From Rickettsia typhi (GTDB lineage Bacteria > Pseudomonadota > Alphaproteobacteria > Rickettsiales > UBA1997): 58,020 nt of DNA. Numbering within the stretch: position 1 is the stretch's first letter; every line of letters begins with the position of its first letter. The notes under the pieces are model-generated. The model saw only the letters and a program-made list of their open reading frames with translations, was not told where the DNA came from and ran no database searches. A program made the position numbers and the translations under genes. The stretch lies in NCBI GenBank assembly GCA_945890035.1, contig CAMDCJ010000001.1:1-58020 (forward strand). The letters run 5' to 3'. This document shows, piece by piece, positions 665 to 52,279 of this stretch.

Positions 665-2182
665 ATGGTTGCCAAAACAAAAACCTTCTCTTTTAGCGGT
701 ATTGAAGCCAATCCCGTTGATGTTCAAGTCAAAATTTCAAATGGAAATTCAGTTTTTTCAATTGTCGGTTTGCCCGATAAATCTGTCGGCGAATCTAAAG
801 AGCGCGTTCGTGGGGCCATCACCTCGACGGGTCTTTCATGGCCTTTTGAAAAAATAACTGTTAATTTGGCGCCGGCGGATTTGCAAAAAGAAGGCGGTCA
901 TTTTGATTTGGCGATCGCGATTGGCATCATGGTTGAAATGGGCGTTCTGCCACAATATTTAATTGATAAATATTTTATAATGGGCGAGCTTTCTCTTGAT
1001 GGATCCGTCAATAGTGTTTCAGGAATCATCTCTTCGGCGATTACCGCCAATCAAATGGGTTGTGGTATAATTTGTCCGAAAGCAAATGGTAAAGAAGCGG
1101 TTTGGGCAGGTGATGTTGATATAATTGCTACTCCAGATATTCTTAGTCTCATTAATCATTTAAAGGGTGAGCAAATTTTAAATCGCCCCGAAAATTTTCA
1201 AAATTTTCAGAATAATAAATATCCAGATTTTGCTGATGTAAAAGGTCAAGAACAAGCCAAAAGAGCCATCGAAATCTCAGCAAGTGGTGGGCATAATATT
1301 TTAATGATTGGCTCGCCAGGATGTGGAAAATCGATGCTGGCTTCTCGAATTCCAAGTATCTTGCCGGATTTAGAATTAATGGAAATGCTTGAAATAAATA
1401 TGATTGCCAGCGTAAGTGATAAAATTAACGACGGCAAACTTATCGTTTCGCGTCCATTTCGCGAAGTGCATCATTCATGTTCAATGCCGGCAATGGTTGG
1501 TGGTGGCGTCAAGGCTAAGCCGGGAGAGGTTTCTTTGGCGCATAATGGAGTTTTATTTTTAGATGAATTGGCAGAATTTCCAAGGCAGGTTCTTGATTCT
1601 TTACGGCAACCGCTCGAGAATCAAGAAATAACAATTTCTCGGGCTAATTCTTGCGCAACTTATCCCGCTAATTTTCAATTGGTGGGGGCTATGAACCCCT
1701 GCCGTTGTGGCTTTTTAGGCGATGCCACCAAAGAATGTAAAAGAGCGCCGATTTGCGGAGAGGAATATAAGAATAAAATTTCAGGACCGTTACTTGATCG
1801 CATCGATATCGTTGTCGAAGTCGGGCAATTTGATTTTTTTGCAAATCAAAAAAATAATTTTAGAAATGAATCTTCAGAAATTATAAAGCAAAGAGTTACG
1901 GAGGTTCGCAATTTACAAAAACAACGCTTTGCAGAATTTGAAGAATTGAAAAATATGCAAATGTTGAATTCAAAAATGAGCGGAAAATTTCTTGAGAAAT
2001 TTTGCAAAATTGATGAAGGTTTACAAAATATTTTACAAAATTTTGTGACAAAAAGCAAAACTTCGATTCGTGGAATAACAAGAATTTTAAGGGTTGCAAG
2101 AACTATTGCCGATATGGAAAATTCTGAGGAAATTTCAAGGGGACATTTGTTAGAGGCCATCTCCTATCGCAAAAAACTCTAA
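665..2182 (+). CDS. comM: YifB/ComM family Mg-chelatase-like AAA+ ATPase
   Basis: 505-aa ORF with an N-terminal Lon-like domain, Walker A GSPGCGKS and Walker B VLFLDELAEF. The C-terminal ..GITRILRVARTIADME..I...HLLEAISYR is typical of this family. Confidence 0.9.
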   Translation: MVAKTKTFSFSGIEANPVDVQVKISNGNSVFSIVGLPDKSVGESKERVRGAITSTGLSWPFEKITVNLAPADLQKEGGHFDLAIAIGIMVEMGVLPQYLIDKYFIMGELSLDGSVNSVSGIISSAITANQMGCGIICPKANGKEAVWAGDVDIIATPDILSLINHLKGEQILNRPENFQNFQNNKYPDFADVKGQEQAKRAIEISASGGHNILMIGSPGCGKSMLASRIPSILPDLELMEMLEINMIASVSDKINDGKLIVSRPFREVHHSCSMPAMVGGGVKAKPGEVSLAHNGVLFLDELAEFPRQVLDSLRQPLENQEITISRANSCATYPANFQLVGAMNPCRCGFLGDATKECKRAPICGEEYKNKISGPLLDRIDIVVEVGQFDFFANQKNNFRNESSEIIKQRVTEVRNLQKQRFAEFEELKNMQMLNSKMSGKFLEKFCKIDEGLQNILQNFVTKSKTSIRGITRILRVARTIADMENSEEISRGHLLEAISYRKKL

Positions 2183-2310
2183 AATCCTCGTCGAATTTTA
2201 AGCGCTTACTTCGTTGTTCATCGAACCCTCAAAGCTCAATGTATTAAAATACATTTTCGCTTCTCGTCTCTCGACCGCCTCGTAATCATCTTAAAATTCT
2301 TAGAGGATTT
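2183..2310. repeat. ~128-nt imperfect palindromic element abutting the comM stop codon
   Basis: Left end aaatcctcgtcgaattttaag pairs with right end cttaaaattcttagaggattt. Central hairpin is aatgtatt-aa-aatacatt. The element starts 0-2 nt from the TAA at 2180-2182. Confidence 0.7.
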
Positions 2311-2358
2311 AGGGCACAACTTTTTACTTTTTTAAATTTATTCGTCGAACTTTAAGCG
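2276..2358 (+). repeat. 83-nt perfect direct repeat, copy 1
   Basis: cgcctcgtaatcatcttaaaattcttagaggatttagggcacaactttttacttttttaaatttattcgtcgaactttaagcg is identical to 2664-2746. Similarity continues for about 10 nt on each side with mismatches. Confidence 0.95.
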
Positions 2359-2574
2359 CTTTCGGGAGCCGTGGGGGGTCAAAAAACCCAAGGCATCAAA
2401 GTTTTTGAGGTTACGAGAAAAGTTAAAGAAAAAAAATTCCAAAAGAACGACCTCTTGATTTATTTAAAAGTTTTTAAATTTATCAATTTTTTAGATTAAA
2501 AACAAAATCAAAAAATTGTTTTTGAAAATTTTTTTGCGGATAAACGCTTCATTTTTTTTCAAAAAAAATTCGCG

Positions 2575-2656
2575 ACTGGGACCCGCGTCGCCTTTGGCTC
2601 CTTATTCCGTTATTCGCTAAAAATAGCCGTTTAAACTATTTTTTAAACGCGAAGAA
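2575..2656. repeat. Composite module D+C; its inverted partner is at 2776-2858
   Basis: ctgggacccgcgtcgcctttggctccttattccgt plus ttcgctaaaaatagccgtttaaactattttttaaacgcgaa aligns at roughly 80% identity to the reverse complement of 2776-2858. Confidence 0.75.
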
Positions 2657-2663
2657 CCTCGAA

Positions 2664-2746
2664 CGCCTCGTAATCATCTTAAAATTCTTAGAGGATTTAG
2701 GGCACAACTTTTTACTTTTTTAAATTTATTCGTCGAACTTTAAGCG
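2664..2746 (+). repeat. 83-nt perfect direct repeat, copy 2
   Basis: Character-for-character identical to 2276-2358. Confidence 0.95.
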
Positions 2747-2758
2747 ATTTCGGAATCC

Positions 2759-3187
2759 AGCTCCCCCCTTGAGGGCTCTTCGCGTTTAAAAAATAGCCTA
2801 AATGGCTATTTTTAGCGAAGAGCGGGATAAGGAGCGAAGGCGACGAAATCCCTGGGGCAAATCTTTTTCGAAGAAAAAGATGAAGCGTTTTTCTAAAAAA
2901 AATTCCAAAAAGACAATTTCTTGATTTTAAATTTAATCCAAAATTTATAATTTTTTAAAGAAAAATTGAGTTACTTTTTTAGTTTAAAAGTTAAATCAAG
3001 AAATTGACTTTTTTGAATTTCTTTTATTTTAAAATTCGATATAATCGATAATTCATTGTCTCTGTAGCTTTTCTGACCCCCCACGTCTCCGCGAATTTAA
3101 CTACCGTTAAATCCGCGTAGCCTGCTCTTCGCTAAAAATAGCCGTTTAAACTATTTTTTAAACGCGAAGAGCCCTCAAGGGGGGAGC
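2759..3187. repeat. ~430-nt giant imperfect inverted repeat (composite palindromic element, copy X-i)
   Basis: Both outer arms are a GC hairpin (agctccccccttgaggg.. / ..ccctcaaggggggagct), each interrupted by a 47-nt family-C palindrome (2776-2822, 3125-3171). Inner inverted modules are aaaaaattccaaaaagacaatttcttgatttt (about 2897-2928) and aaatcaagaaattgacttttttgaattt (about 2993-3020). The right arm carries gcttttctgaccccccac (3067-3084) and the hairpin gcgaatttaac-tacc-gttaaatccgc (3091-3116). Confidence 0.8.
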
Positions 3188-3291
3188 TAGAGCCCGCTGA
3201 TGTTGCGAGTGTTTTTGTAAATGTAGGTTTATAAGCCTCTCAAGGGGAGTGGGAGCTATAGAACGTAAGCGTTGCGAGTTTTTTGTATATT
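3183..3291. repeat. Two tandem copies of flank module E, running up to the lpdA stop codon
   Basis: gagctagagcccgctgatgttgcgagtgtttttgtaaatgtaggtttataagcc is followed by gagctatagaacgtaagcgttgcgagttttttgta. Related copies lie at 24691-24800 and 51927-51990. Confidence 0.7.
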
Positions 3292-4698
3292 TTATGAGTG
3301 AATTTGTCTTTTATCAACCGCAAGGCAAGCTTCTTTAACCGCTTCGTTGTAGGTTGGATGCGCATGACAAGTGCGCGCAATATCTTCGGCGCTTCCGCCA
3401 AATTCCATCGCAACCACAATTTCATGAATAGTATTTCCAGCTTCGCGAGCAATAATATGAGCGCCTAAAATTTTATCTTTTTTGGCGCAAGATATGATTT
3501 TAACGAAACCTTGTTCGTCAAAAGTAGCGCGTGCACGAGAGTTCGCCATCATCGAAAATTTGCCAACTTTGTAATCGATATTTTGTGCCTTTAATTCTTC
3601 TTCAGTTTTGCCAACTGAAGCGACTTCTGGGTAGGTATAAATTACATTTGGAATAGTATTATAATTTATGTGTCCAGCTTGGCCGGCAATAATTTCTGCG
3701 ACCGCGACACCTTCATCTTCGGCCTTGTGAGCAAGCATTGGGCCAGTTGTAACATCGCCAATCGCATAAATATTTTCAACATTAGTGCGCAAATGATGAT
3801 TCTCGATAAAGCCACGATTATTGGTTCTTACACCAACATTTTCTAGGCCTAAATTATTAGTGTTCGGCTTGCGACCAATTGCCACCAAAACCACATCGGC
3901 GCTTAAAGTTTCTTTGTTGCCACCTTGAGCCGATTCAATTTCTACAACTGCACCTTTTTTATCTTTTTTAACTGATAAAACTTTGGTCGATAAACGAAAT
4001 TTAAAGCCTTGTTTTTCAAGGATTCTTTGGAAATTTCTAGAAATTTCATTATCCATTGTCGGGGTAATTTTATCGAGATATTCAATCACCTCGACTTCAG
4101 CTCCAAATCTACTCCAAACAGATCCAAGTTCTAATCCTATAACGCCCGCACCGATTACAATCATTTTTTGCGGAACTGTTTCTAAATTAAGTGCGCCAGT
4201 TGAAGAAATTATAACTTTTTCATCAATTTCAACGCCGGGTAATTGAGCAACTTCAGAGCCCGTCGCTATAACAAAATTTTTGGCATTAAGTGTTTGTTTT
4301 GAGCCATCTTCTTTAACAACTTCAATCGAGTTTTTATCGATAAATTTAGCGACGCCGTGAAAATGTTCAACTTTGTTTTTTTTGAACAACCCAGCTATTC
4401 CTGAGGTTAATCCCGAAACAATATCATTTTTATTTTGAACTAATTTTTTAACATCAATTTTTGGTTTTGAAATGCCGATTCCTAATTTTTCAAATTCATG
4501 GCTGGCATCATGAAATTTATGTGAAATTTCTAACATAGCTTTCGATGGAATGCATCCAACATTTAAACAGGTTCCGCCAAGATTTTTGTGTTTTTCAACA
4601 CAAGCAACTTTTAAGCCTAATTGAGCAGATCTAATTGCCGAAACATAGCCACCTGGGCCACCGCCAATAATAATTATATCAAAAATATTTTCAGACAT
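3292..4698 (-). CDS. lpdA: Dihydrolipoyl dehydrogenase (E3)
   Basis: 468 aa with FAD motif IIIGGGPGGY, redox-active disulfide GGTCLNVGCIPSK and C-terminal HAHPTYNEA interface motif. Confidence 0.93.
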   Translation of the reverse strand: MSENIFDIIIIGGGPGGYVSAIRSAQLGLKVACVEKHKNLGGTCLNVGCIPSKAMLEISHKFHDASHEFEKLGIGISKPKIDVKKLVQNKNDIVSGLTSGIAGLFKKNKVEHFHGVAKFIDKNSIEVVKEDGSKQTLNAKNFVIATGSEVAQLPGVEIDEKVIISSTGALNLETVPQKMIVIGAGVIGLELGSVWSRFGAEVEVIEYLDKITPTMDNEISRNFQRILEKQGFKFRLSTKVLSVKKDKKGAVVEIESAQGGNKETLSADVVLVAIGRKPNTNNLGLENVGVRTNNRGFIENHHLRTNVENIYAIGDVTTGPMLAHKAEDEGVAVAEIIAGQAGHINYNTIPNVIYTYPEVASVGKTEEELKAQNIDYKVGKFSMMANSRARATFDEQGFVKIISCAKKDKILGAHIIAREAGNTIHEIVVAMEFGGSAEDIARTCHAHPTYNEAVKEACLAVDKRQIHS

Positions 4699-5402: not shown

Positions 5403-5831
5403 TTAGTTTAGTGAGCACATCGTTTTGGTGTTTTCACCTGAAATTGCCGCAACAATAGAAGGGCCTCCGAACATTGTGGCGATACCAGCTGCAACACCAA
5501 TCATCAAACCCCAAGATACTTTACCCGTGAAGAAACCTATGCCGGTTGCAATTACCGCGAAAGTCGCAAAAGTTTTACCAGCTCCACCTGTTACAATTCT
5601 TAAGGCATTACACATAACTCTTGTTAATGAGTTAGAGCTGATGTTTGCACTTGCTTCCATAGCAGCATCAGCTTTAGTTTTTTGATCAGCTGCTTCTCTT
5701 AGTTGTTCTGCTGTTAGGTCTGCTGCTAATGCTTCTACTAGGCTAAGATCGGAAAATAATATTGGAAACAAGGCTAGGATAAAAGCTGTTGTCAAAGAGA
5801 TTTTAAATAATTGCTTGGAGTTAATTTTCAT
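5403..5831 (-). CDS. TrbC/VirB2-family type IV secretion pilin-like protein
   Basis: 142 aa with a long signal/leader ending ..VEALAA. The block CNALRIVTGGAGKTFATFAVIATGIGFFTGKVSWGLMIGVAAGIATMFGG aligns in pattern with Agrobacterium VirB2 (C..ILGP.G...AVLGIVAIGISWMFGR.S.GLVAGVVGGIVIMFGA). It has two hydrophobic helices. Confidence 0.65.
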   Translation of the reverse strand: MKINSKQLFKISLTTAFILALFPILFSDLSLVEALAADLTAEQLREAADQKTKADAAMEASANISSNSLTRVMCNALRIVTGGAGKTFATFAVIATGIGFFTGKVSWGLMIGVAAGIATMFGGPSIVAAISGENTKTMCSLN

Positions 5832-25862: not shown

Positions 25863-26947
25863 GATTCGTTTACTCCGTCCAAAGCCAGCTTAATATTCAT
25901 CGCAATTCTCTCAACGACGGGGATTGCCACTGAATTGCCGAATTGCTTATACAAAGCTGAGTCGACGATTTTTGGCAATTTGTAATTCGCGGGAAAGCCT
26001 TGAAAATTAGCACATTCACGCGGGGTTAATTTTCTAATTCCTTTGTCGTCGAGAATAATCGGAACATTGTGCCCGCCCATGCCCATATTGGCGGTGAGAG
26101 TTGGGCAAGCCGAACTTTTATTTTCACGCACATATTTTCTACGCCATTGATAAAGAGTAAATTTTTTAGTCACATCGGTACTAATCCTTGAAAATAAAGG
26201 CTTGTCATTATAATAGTATTTATCGTCAACTTCTTTTTCGAGACAATCTTGAATGGTTTTTGTCAGAGAAATTTTGTTTGGAAAATTAAATTTTTCAAAG
26301 GAATTTTTATTTTTAAAAGCCACAATATAAATTCTTTCTCTATTTTGTGGAATATTGCCATAATCCAGGGCGTTCATGACTTTATCGCATACAAAATAGC
26401 CAAGATTTTCTAGTTCCGAATAAATAATTTTTATTGTTTCACCATTATCGTGACTTTTTAAATTTTTAACATTTTCAAGTAAAATTACTTGTGGTTTTTT
26501 ATCGGCGAGTATTCTAGTAATATCGAAAAAAACATTGCCCCTACCCTTCTCATCATTGAATCCCTGACGATAGCCAGCAATTGAAAATGGTTGACATGGA
26601 AATCCGCCAGCCAAAATATCGCAAGCAGGAATTTGTTGAGTTTGAATTGATGAAATATCACCAAGAAACATTTCGTGATTTTGATTTTGTAGAGAATTTT
26701 TCGAAGCGAAATTATAATCAAAAGTAATTTTACAATTTTTATCAAAATCGTTAGAGAAAACGCAATCGAATCCAGCATTTTCTAGGGCAATTTTAATGCC
26801 ACCGATGCCTGCAAATAGATCAATAAATGATGGCTTTAGTTTTAAAGAAATATTCTTTTTAATATTTTGCAAAGATTGAAAATTACTAAATAAATCAAGA
26901 TTTTCTTGATGAGTATTTTGGGTTTTAATTTTGGTGTTGGCTTTCAT
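25859..26947 (-). CDS. DNA (cytosine-5)-methyltransferase
   Basis: 362 aa with all canonical C5-MTase motifs: I FIDLFAGIGG, IV GGFPCQPFS, VI LLENVKNL, VIII QNRERIYIV, TRD TLTANMGMGGHN, X QFGNSVAIPV. Overall it is collinear with M.HhaI-type enzymes. The target sequence cannot be inferred. Confidence 0.93.
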   Translation of the reverse strand: MKANTKIKTQNTHQENLDLFSNFQSLQNIKKNISLKLKPSFIDLFAGIGGIKIALENAGFDCVFSNDFDKNCKITFDYNFASKNSLQNQNHEMFLGDISSIQTQQIPACDILAGGFPCQPFSIAGYRQGFNDEKGRGNVFFDITRILADKKPQVILLENVKNLKSHDNGETIKIIYSELENLGYFVCDKVMNALDYGNIPQNRERIYIVAFKNKNSFEKFNFPNKISLTKTIQDCLEKEVDDKYYYNDKPLFSRISTDVTKKFTLYQWRRKYVRENKSSACPTLTANMGMGGHNVPIILDDKGIRKLTPRECANFQGFPANYKLPKIVDSALYKQFGNSVAIPVVERIAMNIKLALDGVNES

Positions 26948-27044
26948 AAATGATTTTTTTATTTAAAGAATTTTGCAATTATAAACTCTAAAAAAATAAT
27001 GCAAATATTTAATTCACAAATTTGTTAACATTCGCGATTCATAA

Positions 27045-29635: not shown

Positions 29636-30694
29636 TTATTTTCTAAATAGCAAAGAAGAGTCGCCGTAAGAGTAAAAGCGATATTGTTTTTCAATCGCGT
29701 GGCTGTAAAGTTTAAAGGCATTTTCATAACCAATAAAAGCGCAAATTAACATAAATAAAGTTGACTTTGGAAGATGAAAATTAGTCATCAAAATATCAAC
29801 AATTTTAAAGTCATAAGGTGGATAAATAAAAATTTCAGTAGCACGATTTTGCGGATGCAAAATACCATTCTTATCAACGCTGGATTCAACAGCTCGAAGC
29901 GATGTGGTGCCCACGGCAATAATTTTTTTGCCATTTTTCTTGGCGTTATTTATAATTTCACAATTTTCTTTGGATAGAAAAAATTTTTCGCTATGCATTT
30001 TATGTTCTTTTAAACTTTCGGTGCGAACCGGTAAGAATGTTCCCGCGCCAACATTTAAAGTAAGAAAAACGCATTGAATTTTTTTAGCTTTAATTTTGTT
30101 AAAAATATTTTCATTGAAATGCAAGCCAGCGGTCGGCGCCGCAACGGCTATACCGTCTTGAGCATAGATTGTTTGATAATTTTTTTGATCATTTTGAAAA
30201 TCTTTTTGATTATTTTCATCGCGTTTAATATAAGGTGGAAGTGGCACTGAGCCATATTTTTCAAGCTTTGCCAACAATTCGACTTCATCGCAATTAAATT
30301 TTATTTTTATAAAGCCATCATTATCTTTTTCGATAATTTCACAAAAAAAATCATCACTCAAATCTTGTGAAATTATAACTATATCGCCGACGCGAACTTT
30401 CTTGGCTGGCCTACACAAGGCATTCCAAAGCCCATTTGATTCTTGATCTAGATTAAAATGAATAAGCGCTGAATTGCGAGAAATTTTACCCGTTAATTTT
30501 GCCTTGATTACCTTAACTTGATTAAATATCATTACAGAACCCTCTTCGAAAAAATCAATTAAATCATTGATTTTTTTATCAAGAATTTGATTATTTTGAA
30601 AAACTAACATTGGGGTTTGTTCCTTGTTTTTCAAGGGCTCCTGAGCAATTAAATTCTCAGGTAAATTAAAATTAAAATCTGCAGTTTTAAACAT
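29636..30694 (-). CDS. queA: S-adenosylmethionine:tRNA ribosyltransferase-isomerase
   Basis: The start is set at ATG 30694 (MFKTADFNFNLPENLIAQEP, the typical QueA N-terminus); a TTG at 30706 is the alternative. Also present are GSVPLPPYI, VAAPTAGLHF and AVGTTSLR. Confidence 0.9.
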   Translation of the reverse strand: MFKTADFNFNLPENLIAQEPLKNKEQTPMLVFQNNQILDKKINDLIDFFEEGSVMIFNQVKVIKAKLTGKISRNSALIHFNLDQESNGLWNALCRPAKKVRVGDIVIISQDLSDDFFCEIIEKDNDGFIKIKFNCDEVELLAKLEKYGSVPLPPYIKRDENNQKDFQNDQKNYQTIYAQDGIAVAAPTAGLHFNENIFNKIKAKKIQCVFLTLNVGAGTFLPVRTESLKEHKMHSEKFFLSKENCEIINNAKKNGKKIIAVGTTSLRAVESSVDKNGILHPQNRATEIFIYPPYDFKIVDILMTNFHLPKSTLFMLICAFIGYENAFKLYSHAIEKQYRFYSYGDSSLLFRK

Positions 30695-31448
30695 GGAAAA
30701 TAACAAAACTCATTTTGGTTTCAAGGAAGTCGATCGCGATCAAAAATCTAATTTGGTAAAAAACATTTTTTCAAATGTTGCCAAAAAATATGATTTGATG
30801 AACGATTTAATGAGTGCGGGCACTCATCGACTTTGGAAAAATAACATGATAAACTGTATCGATTTTTTTGACAATATCAAAATAATTGATGTTGCGGGTG
30901 GAACCGGAGATATCGCTTTTCGTATCGCTAAAAAAGCTCAAGAAAAAAGTTTAAATTATCAAATTGAAGTTGTTGATATAAACCCACAAATGCTAGAGGT
31001 TGGGCGCTTAAGGGCTGTTGACATGAATTTATTTTCTCATTTAAATTTTGTTGAAAATGATGGCGAAAATCTAAAATTTGCCGACGAATCTTTTGATGTT
31101 TTTACAATTGCTTTTGGCATTCGTAATTTTACCAATATCGATAAAGGTTTGCGAGAAGCGCATCGTGTTTTGAAAAAAGGTGGAAAATTTATTTGTCTTG
31201 AATTTTCAAAAGTTGAAGATATTTTTTTGCAAAAAATTTACGACACTTATTCTTTCAAAATAATTCCTAAGATTGGTGAATTTATACTTAAAGATCATGA
31301 TTCTTATCAATATTTAGTTGAAAGTATTCGTAAATTTCCTGATCAAAAATCTTTTACAAAACTCATTGAGAATGCGGGTTTTTCAAGGGCTGGTTATCAA
31401 AATTTAACATTCGGAGCTTGTGCGATTCATTGGGGTTTCAAAGAATAA
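30693..31448 (+). CDS. ubiE: Ubiquinone/menaquinone C-methyltransferase
   Basis: 251 aa with YDLMNDLMSAGTHRLWK and the SAM motif DVAGGTGDIA. The C-terminus is ..CAIHWGFK. Confidence 0.9.
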   Translation: MENNKTHFGFKEVDRDQKSNLVKNIFSNVAKKYDLMNDLMSAGTHRLWKNNMINCIDFFDNIKIIDVAGGTGDIAFRIAKKAQEKSLNYQIEVVDINPQMLEVGRLRAVDMNLFSHLNFVENDGENLKFADESFDVFTIAFGIRNFTNIDKGLREAHRVLKKGGKFICLEFSKVEDIFLQKIYDTYSFKIIPKIGEFILKDHDSYQYLVESIRKFPDQKSFTKLIENAGFSRAGYQNLTFGACAIHWGFKE

Positions 31449-31722
31449 ATTTCTTATAATTATACTTTTCTTGCTAAGTTCATGTGCCGGAATTTGTAAT
31501 ATTGAGCAAAAATACACCGAGGAAGCATGGCGACTTTATAATATGCCTTTTACCTATAAAGCTGATTTAAGCCAAGATGAAATTTATAAAATATTTGGGG
31601 GATGTTATAGTTTTGGCGATAAGATTTATATTTCACAAAATATGTTTAAAAAGAAATATATTTTAGTTAAAATGGGCGAACCCTACACCTACGCTGATGA
31701 AGATACTTGGCTTGGTTTTTAA
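31420..31722 (+). CDS. Putative small lipoprotein
   Basis: 100-aa ORF from a GTG start. The signal peptide with lipobox is KNKFLIIILFLLSS-C. No family recognised. The start overlaps the ubiE 3' end by 29 nt. Confidence 0.4.
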   Translation: MRFIGVSKNKFLIIILFLLSSCAGICNIEQKYTEEAWRLYNMPFTYKADLSQDEIYKIFGGCYSFGDKIYISQNMFKKKYILVKMGEPYTYADEDTWLGF

Positions 31723-31804
31723 GAAATAAATTTGTTAACCCAATTTAGCTTTGAGTGATATTTTTTTTATTGGGAATGTTATAATTTGCCGTTTTAAATA
31801 TGGT

Positions 31805-33097
31805 TTATTTATTAAGAAAATTTTTAACCAATTGTAAAATTTCCAAAATATTATCACGAATTTTGGCGTCAAAGCCAATGTTAGTTTTTGCCCATTCTTT
31901 AACCCAAGGTCTTGCCAAATTCCAAATATTTAAATCGGGATCAAGCGATACTCCGACACCCTCAACCAATAATAAAGTTTTTTGTAAAAGCAAAAGTTCG
32001 GGCTTGGTGTCCATCTTATAATTGCGCGATAAATCAATTAGAGCGGTCAATAATTTGGCAATGGAAATATCTTTGATATCAACGCCAACAATCATTTCGC
32101 CAATTTTTCGACAAGATAAAGCTAAATCGTCGATATTAGTTTCTTTCGGAACGAAACCAACATCCACATGTATTTTAGCAACTTTTTGGTAATCGCGATG
32201 CAAAAAACCAATTAGAACCTCGGCAACTGCGATGCGAGTTTTTTTGTCAATCTTGCCCATGATTCCAAAATCAACAACCGCAATGTCGCCATTATGCTTT
32301 AGAAATAGATTTCCGGGGTGCATATCGGCGTGAAAAAAACCATGAACATAAACTTGACGAAAATAACTTAAAACTAAATTTTCGGCTAAAATTTTCTTAT
32401 CAAATTTGCAATTAGCTATGGCTTCGCTATTTGAAAATGGAATGCCATCGATCCATTCGATTACTAAGATTTTTGTTGAAGAATATTGCCAAAAAATTTG
32501 TGGAACATAAAAACCTTTGGTGCCAATCATATCATCGCGCAACTTAGAGCCATTTGCTCCTTCGTGCAGTAAATCAAGTTCATATTTTGCAGTTTGATCG
32601 AGTAAATCACCAACATCTTTAAAGGTTTTTGATAAAAATTTTGAGAAAAGATAGCAAATTTTTGTTAATAATCTAAGAGTTGAAATATCGCGCATCATGG
32701 TTTTGTGGATATTTGGTCGAAGAATTTTTACAGCAACTTCTAAATCGTTATTTAACCTGGCTTTATGGACTTGTGCAATTGACGCTGAGGCGACGGGAGA
32801 AAAATTAAATTCTTTAAAAATTTTATCAAAATCATCGCCAAATTCTTGATGCAAAATATTGGAAACTTTTTTGTGAGAAAATGGCTCTAGGCAATCTTGA
32901 AATTTTGTTAAAGTTAGTGCAACTTGTTTGCCAACTAAATCAGCTCTAACTGATAATAATTGACCAAGTTTTATGAAAGATGGACCGGCAAAATTAAAGA
33001 AAAAATAAATCGCTTTTTCTTTGTTTATTAAGAAAAAAGGTGCGACCAAAATTAAAATAAAAATCAGTCGAATAAGATTTATAAGTGACAAAAACAC
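31805..33097 (-). CDS. ubiB: UbiB/ABC1-family atypical kinase (ubiquinone biosynthesis)
   Basis: 430 aa with GPSFIKLGQLLSVRADL, ASIAQVHKA and the kinase-like HADMHPGNLF and DFGIMG motifs. It is shorter than the ~500-aa UbiB proteins I know. Confidence 0.85.
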   Translation of the reverse strand: MFLSLINLIRLIFILILVAPFFLINKEKAIYFFFNFAGPSFIKLGQLLSVRADLVGKQVALTLTKFQDCLEPFSHKKVSNILHQEFGDDFDKIFKEFNFSPVASASIAQVHKARLNNDLEVAVKILRPNIHKTMMRDISTLRLLTKICYLFSKFLSKTFKDVGDLLDQTAKYELDLLHEGANGSKLRDDMIGTKGFYVPQIFWQYSSTKILVIEWIDGIPFSNSEAIANCKFDKKILAENLVLSYFRQVYVHGFFHADMHPGNLFLKHNGDIAVVDFGIMGKIDKKTRIAVAEVLIGFLHRDYQKVAKIHVDVGFVPKETNIDDLALSCRKIGEMIVGVDIKDISIAKLLTALIDLSRNYKMDTKPELLLLQKTLLLVEGVGVSLDPDLNIWNLARPWVKEWAKTNIGFDAKIRDNILEILQLVKNFLNK

Positions 33098-33105
33098 TAA
33101 ATTAA

Positions 33106-33468
33106 TTATTGCTGTTGAACCGAGTCTTTAATGTTGTTTCCCGCGCCCTCGTTGATAATATTTGGGTCGAGTATTGGAGATTTGGAGGTATCGATTTTAA
33201 TTTTAGACAAATCGACTTCAACCCCAGACCATGATAATAAATTTTTAAGTAATTTTGAAATTATTTCTAAAATGTTTGTCGACATTTCTTGGATGCGACT
33301 TATAACTAGTTTTAAAGCTTGGGCTTCGTTGCTTTTTTGATCAAGTCCGATTATTGTAAGCAACTCATCGATAGTTATTATGTTGAGCACGAGCATCATT
33401 ATCATTAAAGATAAGGCCGTGGAGCTATAAATCATTGCGATTCTGATGTAGCTAAAAGGAGTGATCAT
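33106..33468 (-). CDS. Hypothetical membrane-anchored protein
   Basis: 120-aa ORF with one N-terminal TM segment (ALSLMIMMLVLNIITI). No family recognised. Confidence 0.3.
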   Translation of the reverse strand: MITPFSYIRIAMIYSSTALSLMIMMLVLNIITIDELLTIIGLDQKSNEAQALKLVISRIQEMSTNILEIISKLLKNLLSWSGVEVDLSKIKIDTSKSPILDPNIINEGAGNNIKDSVQQQ

Positions 33469-33549
33469 TATTTTCGAATTTTGTTAATAACAGTTTAAAA
33501 GATAATTTGATATTTCTTTATATTCAAGTGATTTAAAAATATTTTAAAT

Positions 33550-37050: not shown

Positions 37051-39402
37051 TTAACTAAAAAATCCGCGTCTTTTTTTAGTAGGATCTTCACGATCTCCGC
37101 CTGAGCGACGATCTCTGTCACCACTACCTCTTCTATCTTCGCGACGGTCATCACCGCCTCCTCTTCTATCTTCACGACGATCATCGCCACCTCTTCTTCT
37201 GTCGCGACCTTCGCCACCTCTTTCGCCACGACTATCATCGCCACGAGGAGAAAATTCGCGCTCATCAACCATATTTGGTTTGTTAGCGATTTTATCAGAA
37301 ATATCTTCGCCAGTTGTTTGGTCAACACATCTGAAGCTTAATTTAGGACGACCTTTTTTGTCGAAACCTATAACTTTAACTTTAACAACATCGCCTTCAT
37401 TGATAACATCTTCAACAAAATCAATGCGATATTCAGCAAGTTCTGAAATATGAACAAAGCCATCGCGATTATTAGAAATGCTTACGAAAGCTCCGGCATC
37501 GATTACTTTAACTACTGGACCTTCATAGATATCACCAATTTCTGGTTCAAAAGTAATTTCTTGAATCATGCTGATAGCTTTTTTGATGCATTCAGCGCTG
37601 TTTGAAGCGATTTTAACAATTCCGCTATCTTCGATATCAACTGAAGCTCCAGAAACTGCGCAAATTTCTTTGATTACTGCGCCTCTTGAGCCGATAACTT
37701 CACGAATTTTCTTTTGAGCAATATTGATAATTTCAATTTTAGGAACGTTAGTGTTTAGTTCGGTTCTAGGAGTTGACATAACGGCATCCATTTTGTCAAG
37801 AATATGAATTCGACCTTCAAGAGCTTGGTTCAAAGCTTTTTCCATAATTTCAGCGGTAATTCCGTTGATTTTAATGTCCATTTGAAGTGCTGTAATTCCA
37901 TTTCTTGAACCAGCAACTTTGAAATCCATATCGCCAAGATGATCTTCATCACCCATGATATCAGAAAGAATAACATAATTTTCACCTTCTTTAATCAAAC
38001 CCATGGCGATTCCAGAAACTGAAGATTGAATCGGAACTCCAGAATCCATTAATGCAAGCGATGTTCCGCAAACTGTGGCCATTGAAGAAGAGCCGTTTGA
38101 TTCAGTTATTTCAGAAACGATACGAGTTGTATATGAGAATTTTTCAGCACTAGGGTAAACTGGATTGATAGCTCTCCAAGCAAGTTTTCCGTGACCAATT
38201 TCACGACGTCCCGGTGATTTTAGTTGGCCAACTTCTCCAACAGAATATGGTGGGAAATTGTAATGAAGCATGAAAGATTCTTCGGCCATTACTGCATCTA
38301 AATTTTCAATAAGTTGTTTGTCTTTTCCGCCAGCGCCAAGAGTTGATACAACCAAAGCTTGAGTTTCGCCACGAGTGAACAAAGCTGAACCGTGAACTTG
38401 TGGTAAAATACCAACTTCGATTTCAATTTGTCTGATTTGATCAGTTTTACGACCATCGATTCTAAGACCATTTTTTAAAATATCGTTACGAACGATTTCT
38501 TGAGATAGAATTTTAAAAATAGATTTGATTTTATTGTCATCAATTCCTTGTTCGGCATTGACGAATTTTTCTTTAACATCGCTAAGAATTTTTTCAAGAT
38601 CACTTGAGCGAGCTTGTTTTTCAAGTTTTTTGTAAGCTTTGATTAAACGATCACCAATGAAAGTTGTGATGTTATTTTTTAAAGCCACATTATCTTGTTT
38701 GGCGATAACCATTTTTGGTTTTCCGCTTTCAGCTTTAAATTCTTCAATCATGGCGATAACTTCTTGGAAAGCATTATGTCCAAAATTTACTGCTTCTAAC
38801 ATTTTTTGCTCAGATAGTTCTTTTGCTTCTGATTCAACCATTAAAACTGAAGTTTTGGTTCCGGCTACAATTAGATCAAGAGTGCTACCTTTAAGTTCTT
38901 CGTTGCTAGGATTTAATACAAATTCATTGTTGATTAATCCAACTCTAGAAGCGGCGACAACCATTTCAAATGGAGCTTCTGAAATTGATAAGGCAGCTGA
39001 AGCGCCAATTAAGGCAGGAATATCAGGATTACAAGTTGGATCGTAAGATAAAACTGTGCAAACAACATTCACTTCATTATAAAAATTTGCTGGAAACATT
39101 GGGCGAATTGGACGATCAATTAATCGTGAAACTAAAGTCGCAACTTCTGAAGGTTTAGTTTCTCTTTTAAAAAAGCCACCAGGAATTTTTCCTGCAGCGT
39201 ATGATTTTTCTAAGTAATTAACGGTTAAAGGAAAGAAATCTGTTCCTTCGGCAGCTTTTGAAGCAATAGTTACCGCGCATAAAATTGTAGTGTTGCCGTA
39301 TTTTACGATTACTGAGCCATTGGCTTGTCTTGCTATTTTTCCTGTTTCGATTGATAAGGTTTTACCATTCCAATTGATTTCTTTTTTTACAACATTGAAC
39401 AT
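37051..39402 (-). CDS. pnp: Polyribonucleotide nucleotidyltransferase (PNPase) with an Arg/Gly/Asp-rich C-terminal extension
   Basis: 783 aa with two RNase PH domains, KH and S1 domains (…FVHISELAEYRIDFVEDVINEGDVVKVKVIGFDKKGRPKLS). These are followed by about 80 extra low-complexity residues. Confidence 0.95.
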   Translation of the reverse strand: MFNVVKKEINWNGKTLSIETGKIARQANGSVIVKYGNTTILCAVTIASKAAEGTDFFPLTVNYLEKSYAAGKIPGGFFKRETKPSEVATLVSRLIDRPIRPMFPANFYNEVNVVCTVLSYDPTCNPDIPALIGASAALSISEAPFEMVVAASRVGLINNEFVLNPSNEELKGSTLDLIVAGTKTSVLMVESEAKELSEQKMLEAVNFGHNAFQEVIAMIEEFKAESGKPKMVIAKQDNVALKNNITTFIGDRLIKAYKKLEKQARSSDLEKILSDVKEKFVNAEQGIDDNKIKSIFKILSQEIVRNDILKNGLRIDGRKTDQIRQIEIEVGILPQVHGSALFTRGETQALVVSTLGAGGKDKQLIENLDAVMAEESFMLHYNFPPYSVGEVGQLKSPGRREIGHGKLAWRAINPVYPSAEKFSYTTRIVSEITESNGSSSMATVCGTSLALMDSGVPIQSSVSGIAMGLIKEGENYVILSDIMGDEDHLGDMDFKVAGSRNGITALQMDIKINGITAEIMEKALNQALEGRIHILDKMDAVMSTPRTELNTNVPKIEIINIAQKKIREVIGSRGAVIKEICAVSGASVDIEDSGIVKIASNSAECIKKAISMIQEITFEPEIGDIYEGPVVKVIDAGAFVSISNNRDGFVHISELAEYRIDFVEDVINEGDVVKVKVIGFDKKGRPKLSFRCVDQTTGEDISDKIANKPNMVDEREFSPRGDDSRGERGGEGRDRRRGGDDRREDRRGGGDDRREDRRGSGDRDRRSGGDREDPTKKRRGFFS

Positions 39403-47090: not shown

Positions 47091-47091
47091 A

Positions 47092-47382
47092 AAATACCAC
47101 TTCCACTCTTAAATGATGCGACTGAATTTTGTGGAACTCGTCTTTGCGCGCCTACATTTAGTAGGCTTACGCAGACTCGTCCTTAAATTCAATCGCCTGA
47201 TTTAAGATTGGAAGCGGTATTTCTGAGAGACTAATAAATGATGCGACTGAATTTTGTGGAACTCGTCTTTGCGCGCCTACATTTAGTAGGCTTACGCAGA
47301 CTCGTCCTTAAATTCATTCGCCTCATTTAAGATTGGAAGCGGTATTTCTGAGAGACTAATAAATGATGCGAGGAGAATTTTG
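47092..47382 (+). repeat. Family-A palindromic element duplicated in tandem (125-nt period; 2 full copies plus a partial third)
   Basis: Units 47111-47235 and 47236-47360 differ at only 2 positions (caatcgcctgattt vs cattcgcctcattt). The third unit starts at 47361 (aaatgatgcga..) and then diverges. The array starts 2 nt after the stop at 47088-47090. Confidence 0.92.
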
Positions 47383-47386
47383 CTCA

Positions 47387-47550
47387 ACGCTTCATCTTTT
47401 TCGAAGAAAAAGATGAAGCGTTTATCCGCAAAAAAAATTTTCAAAATGGCAATTTCTTGATTTAACTTTTGAACTAAAAAATCACCAATTTTTGTTTGAA
47501 AAATTTATAAATTTTGTCGATTAAAGTCAAAATCAAAAATTTTCAAAGCA
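47387..47550. repeat. Perfect 16-bp palindrome (family G) followed by the AT-rich inverted modules shared with loci 2400-3030 and 24400-24580
   Basis: acgcttcatctttttc-gaa-gaaaaagatgaagcgt (47387-47421), then ttatccgcaaaaaaaattttcaaaatggcaatttcttgatttaac... . Related sequences are 2861-2935, the reverse complement of 2500-2560, and a degenerate copy at about 470-505. Confidence 0.75.
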
Positions 47551-50931: not shown

Positions 50932-51364
50932 TAATAAGCAAAAAAGATCAATTTTTGTGGCAGGAATTTTTTTAATATCAATTATTTCACTAATTTTTAT
51001 TTTAAAAAATTTTCAAAATAATATTGTCTTTTTTTTCTCGCCATCCGAAATTGATAAAATCCGCTCAAGCCTTTCAAGCGTAAGAGTGGGAGGTATGATA
51101 AAAAAAGATTCAATTAAAAAAATCGACGCTTTAACGACCGAGTTTATTATTACTGATTACAAAAATGACTTAGCAATTAATTATCGTGGAATTTTACCCG
51201 ATCTATTTAGAGATGAACAAGGAGTAGTTGCCAAAGGTAAAATAAATATTGTAGAAAATAAATTTTATTCAAGTGAATTATTGGTGAAGCATGATGAAAA
51301 TTATATGCCACCTGAGGTTGCCAAAGATTTAAAAATGAAAATACCGGATTCCACTCTTAAATGA
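50912..51364 (+). CDS. ccmE: Cytochrome c-type biogenesis heme chaperone CcmE
   Basis: 150 aa with an N-terminal anchor, ..VRVGGMI.., GVVAKG and the heme-binding LVKHDENYMPPEV. The last 9 codons and the stop lie inside a family-A repeat. Confidence 0.88.
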   Translation: MFKKSLNNKQKRSIFVAGIFLISIISLIFILKNFQNNIVFFFSPSEIDKIRSSLSSVRVGGMIKKDSIKKIDALTTEFIITDYKNDLAINYRGILPDLFRDEQGVVAKGKINIVENKFYSSELLVKHDENYMPPEVAKDLKMKIPDSTLK

Positions 51365-51471
51365 TGCGACCGAATTTTGCGGATCTCGTCTTTGCGCGCC
51401 TACTTTAGAGTAGGCTTACGCAGACTCGTCCTTAAATTCAATCGCCTGATTTAAGATTGGAAGCGGTATTT
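51338..51471. repeat. Family-A palindromic element, copy A5, overlapping the ccmE 3' end
   Basis: aaataccggattccactcttaaatgatgcgaccgaattt ... aaattcaatcgcctgatttaagattggaagcggtattt. It is about 85-90% identical (by eye) to 23928-24059 and 47092-47223. Confidence 0.85.
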
Positions 51472-51531
51472 ATGAGAAACTAATGAGTTATGTTGTTGAG
51501 TTTAGGCTATTTTTTTAACGCAAATAACCTA

Positions 51532-51557
51532 GATTTAAGATTGGAAGCGGTATTTAT
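51532..51557 (+). repeat. Solo copy of the family-A right terminus
   Basis: gatttaagattggaagcggtatttat is identical to 51448-51473. Confidence 0.9.
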
Positions 51558-51655
51558 CGTGTTACACATTAAATTTGCTAGCGCAAATTTAGCTTTTTAG
51601 TTGAATCGCTCCATGGCGAATAAATCGCCGTATTCGCGATGAGTTCGGTGCCATT

Positions 51656-51931
51656 GCTCCCCCCTTGAGGGGGAGCGGGCTCCGAGGATTTAACGGTAGT
51701 TAAATTCGCGGAGACGTGGGGGGTCAAAAAAGCTACAGCGACAATTAATTATCGATTATATCGAATTTTAAAATAAAAGAAATTCAAGAAATCGTCTTAT
51801 TTAGAATTTTTTTGTTTTAACTTTTCTCGGAACATTAAAACCTTTGGTGCTCTAAGTTTTTGACCCCCCACGATTCTAGAAACTTAACTACCGTTAAGTT
51901 TCTAGAATCTGCTCCCCCTCAAGGGGGGAGC
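51656..51931. repeat. ~276-nt giant imperfect inverted repeat (composite palindromic element, copy X-iv)
   Basis: The left arm is gctccccccttgagggggagc (51656-51676)..ggatttaac-ggta-gttaaattc..gtggggggtcaaaaaagc (51716-51733). The right arm is tttttgaccccccac (about 51857-51871)..attctagaaacttaac-tacc-gttaagtttctagaat (51873-51908)..gctccccctcaaggggggagc (51911-51931). Confidence 0.85.
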
Positions 51932-51990
51932 TATATTCCGTAAGCGTTGTGAGCATTTTTGTAAAATGTAGGGGTATAAGCCCCTTTAGA
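51927..51990. repeat. Flank module E, copy at locus iv
   Basis: ggagctatattccgtaagcgttgtgagcatttttgtaaaatgtaggggtataagcccc aligns with 3183-3291. Confidence 0.7.
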
Positions 51991-52279
51991 AGGACTTGCA
52001 TTAATCCAAATTCTTGGCGATGCGGAGAGGGGTCAGAAAAGCATAGATAATGAACGGTTTCGCATCAATAGTAAAAATTTTCCAAAATAGTTTTTTACAA
52101 AAGCTAATTTCTTGAATCGATTAAAAGCATTCGAATTTTATAACTTTTCAAATCTTTAATATTTCTGAAGCATAAACCTAAAAAGTTTCATAAAAATTCT
52201 TGCACTTTTTAACTTACTAATCAAAATTAAAAATTATTATTAGCCCAATTAAATTTTAAATTTAAATTATAGGTTTCAC

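Follow-up and report, generated by a model that had tools for sequence, protein, structure and literature searches.

A mosaic of small hairpin repeats between convergent comM and lpdA genes in a freshwater Rickettsiales-labelled metagenome contig

The window analysed here is a 58,020-nt stretch of a metagenome contig (CAMDCJ010000001.1), to which all coordinates refer, and the element under study is the gap at 2183-3291, flanked by a yifB/comM-type gene (+) and a convergent lpdA gene (-). This gap is likely an accretion site, a mosaic resembling BIMEs (bacterial interspersed mosaic elements) in which several small non-coding hairpin repeats, specific to an AT-rich freshwater clade labelled Rickettsiales, have been brought together. 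The repeats form a previously undescribed family from a clade not studied so far; their general kind is well known, that of non-autonomous palindromic repeats resembling BIMEs and REPs (repetitive extragenic palindromes). The units would multiply as non-autonomous DNA and would survive only at harmless sites, that is, at the 3'-3' and 3'-5' junctions between the closely packed genes of the genome. The copies would then be reshuffled by recombination, gene conversion and slippage, which would give rise to alleles that differ between strains and to mosaics at rearrangement breakpoints. The form acted upon would be a folded single strand, probably of DNA, handled by a trans-acting factor. Copy number, distribution, covariation, placement and allele turnover are directly supported; the mobilisation step and the factor are what we infer.

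Repeat content and building blocks

An earlier reading of the window made from its letters alone (the sequence-only reading) had described the gap as lacking any credible open reading frame (ORF), as consisting largely of repeats and as carrying GC-rich modules on an AT-rich background, and had placed further copies of the modules at 24267-24800, 47387-47550 and 51656-52060. These descriptions were borne out. The longest ORF of the gap is 42 aa, and repeated 14-mers cover 0.60 of its bases, the maximum among the 1.1-kb stretches of the window (median 0.12). Modules with a GC content of 0.45-0.57 alternate with AT-rich cores of 0.18-0.20, the mean of the window being 0.33. The modules do recur at the three other places, for example over 119 nt at 94% (3009-3127 against 51673-51791), and the four largest intergenic gaps of the window are exactly the four repeat clusters. 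The window contains five copies of the signature of the hairpin named H below and six of the half-hairpin of the unit named G, as compared with 0.00 of either in shuffles (100 shuffles for H).

The units are ordered in a compound palindrome, E(n)-G-H-polyG-B...B'-polyC-H'-G'-E(n), which was observed in 8 full elements from 6 genomes and in 66 oriented arms of other genomes; full copies span 290-600 nt. G is a 9-bp GC hairpin, GCTCCCCC-TCAA-GGGGGGAGC. H is a 17-bp hairpin in which a 12-bp variable lower stem surrounds TTAACTACCGTTAA, with the invariant apex AAC-TACC-GTT. The poly-C/poly-G box (GACCCCCCACG) lies between H and B, with a spacer of about 60 nt before the B box (AAATCAAGAAATYG), and the distance of the latter to the poly-C box is 81-84 nt in 53 of 58 copies. 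The E unit, of about 70 nt, typically reads GTAGGGGYGTAAGCCC and often shows a GTAA loop; a variable number of E units flanks the arms, and the ends of the element are not sharp. In addition, C is an AT-rich palindrome of 46 nt that displaces the 5' half of G here and in the loci L049, L063 and L064, F is a 135-nt palindrome located at gene ends, and K, S and D are smaller modules (K and S palindromic) that ride on the compound frame. Decayed, half and chimeric copies of the element exist as well. Two identifications with known binding sites were rejected: the B box as a site of integration host factor (IHF), of which only 12 of 57 copies fit the strict consensus WATCAANNNNTTR, and the H apex as a CtrA box (TTAA-N7-TTAA), which by inspection has a spacing of N6 and stems that covary.

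Conservation of pairing and loop

In the H hairpin, folding ability and loop sequence are preserved. Compensatory double changes were found in 11 of the 12 variable stem pairs among 34 distinct hairpins, copies within one genome not being independent observations, and 89.6% of the stem cells are paired, as compared with 72% in column shuffles (0 of 500 reaching the observed value) and at most 49% when the partners were slid. The outer stems of C and F are likewise altered on both sides. For the loop, H copies were located through their flanks and not through their core, which gave 90 copies: TTAACTACCGTTAA is kept in 77 of them and the TACC loop in 85. Seven of the 13 variant copies have changed the top stem from TTAAC/GTTAA to GCAAC/GTTGC with the same loop, one is altered only in its stem, and five carry substitutions in the TACC loop. 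Two H copies join arms of different subfamilies, the break falling at the loop.

The constant part of H, AAC-TACC-GTT, has an asymmetric centre, which favours a folded single strand, and not a dimer site on duplex DNA, as what is recognised. Taken together, the pairing requirement and the fixed loop point to a folded single strand as the active form, which would be read by a putative trans-acting factor. Wobble-type mismatches in the H stem number 12 G-T against 15 A-C; being without strand bias, they lend no support to a fold at the RNA level, and selection on RNA, for which this asymmetry would have been the signal, was rejected as a candidate. The active form is probably a single-stranded fold-back, of DNA more likely than of RNA.

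Distribution across genomes

The exact 25-base H signature was scanned in one genome per species (185,579 species, 596 Gb), in which about 0.004 chance matches would be expected by our own estimate. It was found in 61 stretches of 11 species and in no other species genome scanned. All carriers are freshwater metagenome-assembled genomes (MAGs) labelled Rickettsiales, 'Rickettsia' or Alphaproteobacteria; among the species representatives, no match was obtained in cultured Rickettsia, Orientia or Wolbachia. The modules are therefore not confined to the gap, since copies lie elsewhere in the window and in 11 other species, and the proposal of a proliferating non-autonomous family agrees with what is seen: the copies are numerous, non-coding and palindromic, and some variants are amplified. 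One H stem variant is present in 21 identical copies in a single MAG, and variants are common to several species. The coding DNA of the carriers is only 68-71% identical to that of the window, though whole H arms may be identical.

The distribution is patchy. In 231 kb of lpdA-anchored contigs (79-95% LpdA identity) a single match to the H-loop 10-mer was found and no G or poly-C motif, as compared with 5-6 each of the H, G and poly-C motifs in the 58 kb of the window. A copy lies at most 400 nt from a contig end in 21 of 28 whole-contig loci, which indicates that the repeats break assemblies and that the true copy number is above the count. BLAST comparison of the gap with the PLSDB plasmids gave no match, and nothing relevant was found in the literature on these MAG names and accessions. 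Several carrier MAGs were deposited as 'Rickettsia typhi', a label that cannot be right, their coding DNA being only about 70% identical to that of the window and the MAGs being rich in repeats; R. typhi is reported to be without such repeats (PMC3733652).

Placement relative to genes

Gene junctions were counted in the window and in the 61 loci carrying the H signature. H-bearing junctions comprise 13 convergent, 5 tandem and 0 divergent cases, against a baseline of 37 convergent among 237 (odds ratio 21, Fisher p = 2e-8), and the gaps have a median of 882 nt when H is present and of 76 nt when it is absent. No copy was found inside an ORF among 86 H, 72 G, 97 poly-C, 21 E, 12 S and 6 F, a copy being considered as inside when it had at least 30 codons on each side within a stop-to-stop ORF of at least 150 aa.

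The contact of F with coding sequence is 3'-terminal only. In cluster 4 the F palindrome encodes the last 7 codons (residues 144-150) and the stop of ccmE (51341-51364), and in locus L052 it overlaps the end of one ORF (about 2100-2132). All six F copies share the same orientation, and each begins right where the upstream gene or tRNA ends (3' end), the one in L033 starting directly after the CCA end of a tRNA. Database variants of CcmE show two alternative C-termini, ...KMKIPDSTLK and ...LNFKSFSPARP. The two strands of F were compared for folding in three copies of the window (23929-24062, 47094-47226 and 51341-51474) and in those of L033 and L052. In each of these five well-delimited copies folding is better by 6-12 kcal/mol on the strand antisense to the upstream gene (3-5 G-U pairs) than on the mRNA-sense strand (1 G-U pair), an asymmetry that may be inherited as the copies are related.

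Organisation of the gap and of the other clusters

The features are listed in Table 1. The right arm of the compound element of the gap is intact and comprises the poly-C box, H (3085-3122), the C-in-G module and two E units. In its left arm the position of H-polyG is taken by C-D-K, and the rest of the gap consists of a second, partial element and of the pieces P1 and P2.

Table 1. Coordinates of the repeat modules, repeat clusters and flanking genes in the window
Feature	Position	Strand	Remarks
yifB/comM-type Mg-chelatase-like AAA ATPase, left flank	665-2182	+	TIGR00368, 553.9 bits; from the ORF list; stop codon abuts the repeats
P1, imperfect palindrome, locus-specific	2183-2312		arms 2182-2202/2290-2310 (21 nt, 86%) and 7-bp central hairpin
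P2 copy 1, 101-nt direct repeat	2270-2370	+	perfect over 2276-2358
Partial compound element	2365-2570	+	poly-G box, B box, AT-rich core, inverted B-like box, hairpin K'
poly-G box CGTGGGGGGTC of partial element	2370-2380		within 2365-2570
B box of partial element	2429-2461		within 2365-2570
Inverted B-like box of partial element	2489-2530		within 2365-2570
Hairpin K' of partial element	2535-2570		within 2365-2570
D module and C palindrome	2575-2658	+	C core 2619-2643; inverted copy 2774-2838, 88%
P2 copy 2, 101-nt direct repeat	2658-2758	+	perfect over 2664-2746
G half-hairpin, then inverted C palindrome and D module	2759-2858	-	G half-hairpin 2760-2775; from inverted-arm comparison
K hairpin CTTTTTCGAAGAAAAAG	2859-2893		hairpin 2863-2879; second copy 47396-47412; 9-bp stem in fold
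AT-rich core of compound element	2894-3066		inverted B boxes 2894-2943/2977-3026 (84%) and spacer to poly-C box
poly-C box and H hairpin	3067-3123	+	poly-C 3075-3085; H apex TTAACTACCGTTAA 3097-3110; 12-bp variable stem; covariation
C palindrome in place of the 5' half of G	3124-3187	+	C core 3134-3158; G remnant 3172-3187; identical junction in L049, L063, L064
Two tandem E units to the lpdA stop codon	3188-3291	+	69-nt spacing; E after G in most of 66 copies (other genomes)
lpdA, dihydrolipoyl dehydrogenase, right flank	3292-4698	-	TIGR01350, 572 bits
Cluster 2	23930-24806		F palindrome at recJ stop (about 23930-24062); full compound element about 24267-24760; S palindrome nested at 24470-24525
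Cluster 3	47091-47550		2.2 tandem F units (47091-47370; one copy 47094-47226); K hairpin and B-box core 47387-47550
Cluster 4	51338-52279		F palindrome about 51341-51477; C-like insert 51484-51529; compact compound element 51653-51940; E units; decayed half element about 52020-52120

Several symmetries named in the sequence-only reading could be measured. The two copies of the 83-nt direct repeat match at every position, 83 nt being the maximal perfect length, and the repeat extends to 101 nt at 96%. The D+C module is indeed present in both orientations, its arms (2594-2658/2774-2838) being 65 nt long, and the two tandem E units (3182-3215/3251-3284, 74%) reach the lpdA stop as described. For two others the outline stood and the details had to be amended. 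The 128-nt palindrome (2183-2310) exists, in a looser form than claimed, as the terminal arms and central hairpin of P1. The giant inverted repeat is likewise present without being continuous, since it is composed of outer arms (2751-2829/3118-3196, 79 nt, 90%) and inner arms of 50 nt formed by the two B boxes of the core. Interleaved with it is a second concentric set of arms centred on about 2720, made of 2425-2462/2992-3029, 2489-2558/2874-2943 and the D+C arms.

The interior of P1 pairs poorly, yet its folding beats that of shuffles (z -3.3 on the forward and -4.3 on the reverse strand), and the segments of the gap in general fold strongly (z -3.3 to -9.8). P1 is about 96% conserved in the strains L063 and L064 and has no copies elsewhere in the 0.9 Mb examined; this is the case for the whole left third of the gap (2183-2370 and 2658-2758), for which no copies beyond the locus were found in that sequence set. 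P1 was also considered as a decayed F, and was rejected as such because its similarity to the F palindrome is no better than that of shuffles. Other parts are dispersed: C palindrome copies were found in five other loci, each tile of the AT-rich core gave 18-30 related matches, and 2520-2558, in the partial element, is complementary at 95% to 47407-47446. G hairpins without interruption by C stand at 24673-24690 and 51911-51928. Nesting is recurrent (C in the G hairpin, S in the core of an element), as had been stated, and would reflect the insertion of families into one another, a step that the recurrence suggests.

In cluster 2 the element at 24269-24711 has inverted arms of 66-104 nt, and the stretch separating the F palindrome from the compound element contains a short tandem run (aatctcaca, about 4-5 copies) at 24100-24150. 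Near the 3' end of pnp (37051-39402, -), at 37118-37213, a unit of about 33 nt is repeated three times in tandem (70-85% identity), which suggests a repeated C-terminal peptide tail of PNPase. A TrbC/VirB2-type pilin gene (PF04956) is located at 5403-5831 (-). The sister strain L150 has a 615-aa gene with faint or unmarked matches to effectors of type IV secretion systems (Ceg32, RickCE_N), at the place where the window has arginase and AstE-like genes. The pilin gene together with this Ceg32/RickCE-like gene suggests a type IV secretion system and a host-associated lifestyle of the MAG lineage. A replication-origin reading was rejected as well: the cumulative GC skew climbs monotonically over the window, with no turning point.

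Allele turnover and rearrangement

The gap measures 1109 nt in the window, 847 nt in L063 and 1299 nt in L064, while the flanking ComM and LpdA are 98-99% identical. The three alleles have common edges and unrelated centres; the right edge is about 82% identical to that of L064, where H belongs to a different subfamily. In every lineage with at most 95% LpdA identity a different gene stands downstream of lpdA, across a gap of 0-650 nt that is free of the modules. In one of these, L069 (93% LpdA identity), the 3' end of lpdA is joined through a 77-nt gap to the homologue of 29640-33547 of the window, so that a segment of about 26 kb of the window (about 3289-29636) is inverted relative to L069, with one breakpoint at the gap. 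The other breakpoint (29619/29636) is a 16-nt spacer with no repeats.

Cluster 2 adjoins a strain-variable slot that in the window is occupied by an m5C DNA methylase (PF00145) and a 351-aa ORF without family match (24807-26947, -), which look like a type II restriction-modification pair. Strains with an identical Nth (L145-L147) have a GmrSD-type restriction gene in the slot, similarity to the window stopping at 26990, and the region downstream of recJ is without modules in L003. At cluster 3, collinearity with L150 (96% identity; 2325-2725 of that strain in the comparison) stops at 47529, and a different small F-like palindrome abuts this point there. Three of the four clusters are thus situated at synteny breakpoints. 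These comparisons point to change by copy replacement, recombination and rearrangement and not by point mutation. Since the centres of the gap alleles are unrelated and cluster 4 is collinear in the sister strain, no insertion boundary could be fixed. Exact-protein look-ups with ParB and the ABC ATPase, made for empty sites, returned nothing.

Weighing of the explanations

Some observations weigh against the accretion of non-autonomous repeats. Cluster 4 (51440-52220) is 99.1% identical to L150, with 7 differences in 781 nt, whereas the surrounding 9 kb is 96.0% identical and the F copy just upstream of this tract only about 89%. Such conservation fits constraint or a recent recombination tract better than decaying junk. 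No insertion event was caught in the three gap alleles and the sister-strain comparisons, that is, no pair of an empty and a filled site. No transposase domain was found in the window, no multi-copy ORF family was found among 486 ORFs in the 350 kb around H modules (part of each genome), and a tblastn search with E. coli RayT gave no hit at E <= 10 in 0.9 Mb (the window and 148 loci), a search that is insensitive for this family and was made on partial genomes. Moreover, the 61 loci were found by means of the H signature, the conservation of which is therefore partly ascertained, and all sequences are short-read metagenome assemblies, in which part of the allele variation within the repeat mosaic could be mis-assembly.

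The conservation of cluster 4 would be expected if the repeats were 3'-end elements kept by the host between converging transcription units, as barriers or stabilisers of transcript ends, insulators or sites of nucleoid proteins, functions that have been suggested for REP/BIME elements; we regard this as possible, though doubtful, and it is compatible with a selfish origin. The enrichment at convergent junctions with none at divergent ones, an invariant loop with a covarying stem across at least 11 species, the fixed distance between the B and poly-C boxes and the co-orientation of all F copies at 3' ends are also in keeping with it. The hairpins, however, have no trailing T-run, terminator scanning of the gap remained at chance level (1 against 1.9 expected), few B boxes fit the strict IHF consensus, the H stem has no asymmetry of G-U against A-C, and in F it is the antisense and not the mRNA strand that folds better. 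In addition, the same junctions are free of modules in sister lineages (downstream of lpdA, and of recJ in L003), and the gap alleles differ wholesale between strains. The accretion of selfish repeats would for its part leave room for a more specific agent, namely a putative hairpin-specific DNA enzyme, other than RAYT, that would recognise H, copy the elements and catalyse exchanges between them. This is unlikely in our estimation and is put forward tentatively, on the basis of the invariant, asymmetric TACC/GGTA loop closed by AAC/GTT, the paired stem of any sequence, the occurrence in at least 12 species and the arm-swapped chimeras that break at the loop. If it were true, the mosaics would serve as active hubs of recombination; the exchange of restriction cassettes next to cluster 2 and the breakpoints at cluster 3 and, for the inversion, at the gap would then be explained.

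Classical MITEs (short for miniature inverted-repeat transposable elements), that is, deletion derivatives of insertion sequences (IS) moved by a transposase through terminal inverted repeats with target-site duplications, would account for the long inverted arms, for the element size of 290-600 nt and for the bursts of copies within a genome. This explanation is quite improbable given that no duplication is visible at the inspected ends of F, S and compound elements (the exact ends not being fixed by an empty site) and that neither the window nor the 350 kb around copies yielded a full-length parent, a transposase or a multi-copy ORF. The variable numbers of E units, which leave the ends blurred, and the covarying internal hairpins, which terminal-repeat recognition on double-stranded DNA does not require, also speak against it. 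An assembly artefact, either a chimeric join or a collapsed repeat produced by the short-read metagenome assembler, is very unlikely: repeat copies do commonly terminate contigs and the three alleles differ precisely in their repeat-rich centre, but two JGI samples (L063 and L064) independently yielded an assembly of the comM-gap-lpdA junction with its conserved edges. The lpdA-side edge is present also in L065, which ends 136 nt into the gap, a second contig of the window's own sample is collinear across the gap at 99.8%, and cluster 4 is collinear at 99% in contigs of other samples. Strong folding and the GTAA loop often seen in E units could finally recall one or more structured non-coding RNA genes, and a degraded protein gene might be thought of as well; we consider both to be highly improbable. 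At the gathering score, Rfam 15 gave only tRNA-Phe in the whole window, and at the E-value threshold the gap matched only sub-threshold plant miRNA hairpin models, alike on both strands (65.7 bits against a gathering score of 230). Promoters in the gap are at chance level (3 against 3.5 expected), even between strains conservation is lacking at the centre of the locus, the longest ORF has 42 aa, and the modules are dispersed in many unrelated contexts. No Rfam family, ORF or pseudogene thus explains the locus.

Accretion of non-autonomous hairpin repeats is therefore the reading retained. It adds a case of palindromic repeats that thrive without a visible transposase, an open problem for the Rickettsia palindromic elements (RPEs) and for the alphaproteobacterial CGTC REPs, and does so in an uncultured, apparently host-associated freshwater lineage of Rickettsiales. 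The invariant loop and covarying stem offer a concrete handle for finding the factor that would read the hairpin. The repeats fragment the assemblies of the clade and mark strain changes in gene order and in defence genes, and matter for binning, strain typing and the reading of synteny. The parts most worth pursuit are the loop-specific hairpin, the link to breakpoints and the variable defence slot.

Comparison with known repeat families

By architecture and placement, the nearest known systems appear to be the REP/BIME mosaics, a likeness that does not amount to established membership. The sequence-only reading had called the modules RPE/REP/MITE-like; by the features tested, the REP part of this name holds, whereas an assignment to RPEs or to the CGTC-tagged REPs does not, and one to the GTAG-tagged REPs is not evident. 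REP and BIME of Enterobacteria and Pseudomonas are extragenic and are mostly found between unidirectional and convergent genes (PMC2817692, PMC3733652), and REPIN are inverted doublets that fold into larger hairpins with pairing maintained (PMC3116915). The present units likewise alternate with conserved motifs in extragenic positions in 6 genomes, all 18 H junctions being convergent or tandem, and the 8 full elements are inverted doublets that fold into a larger hairpin with maintained pairing. The likeness extends to short GC-rich imperfect palindromes in high copy and alternating orientation, joined into mosaics by conserved inter-unit motifs. The differences from REP and REPIN are that no GTAG or CGTC tag occupies a defined position here, that the main hairpin of 17 bp has an invariant loop and not an invariant foot, that no RAYT gene was found in the roughly 0.9 Mb searched and that the host clade is another one; the compound unit is also larger than a REPIN (about 100 nt). 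The E units mostly read GTAGGGGYGTAAGCCC, yet not every copy retains the short stem behind it, and GTAG is missing from the foot of both H and G.

CGTC-tagged REPs, which include RPE-4 and RPE-6, are defined by an unpaired CGTC (or TGTC/CCTC), an 8-9-bp stem starting from A/T pairs, a loop of 4-5 nt and a tail resembling CCA (PMC3733652). When this geometry was scanned for, 3 hits were obtained in the window and 17 CGTC-tagged ones in 0.9 Mb, with no abundant family; a few G hairpins follow CGTC, but their stems have GC at the start, and the tag changes along with the H stem. The ATGAC motif, which reaches 16-33 per kb in RPE-4/6/7 (PMC3767692), is absent from the gap and from all four clusters (0 in 3388 nt), as compared with 1.0 per kb in the window. 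With RPE-1 to RPE-10 the modules have in common the same broad host order, the co-existence of several families of palindromes of 100-150 nt in an AT-rich reduced genome, the lack of a known associated transposase (PMC3733652) and contact with coding sequence, here of F with ccmE. The hallmark of RPEs, in-frame intragenic insertion, is absent from more than 250 module copies (0 cases), in contrast. This separation concerns the features tested.

Bacterial MITEs are non-coding, have inverted terminal arms, occur in tens to hundreds of intergenic copies and can nest (PMC10969869). The present modules resemble MITEs such as Correia/NEMIS of Neisseria, ERIC and RUP in being non-coding, intergenic and nested, and in their inverted arms, which attain 79 nt (90%) in the gap and 66-104 nt at 24269-24711; they differ in their modular ends, in their covarying internal hairpins and in that no target-site duplication or cognate IS was found. 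A last parallel is given by the mobile GC clusters of yeast mitochondria, which are GC-rich palindromic modules in AT-rich spacers, often adjacent or nested, polymorphic between strains and not known to have a transposase. This resemblance is one of behaviour only, the system and the sequences being unrelated.

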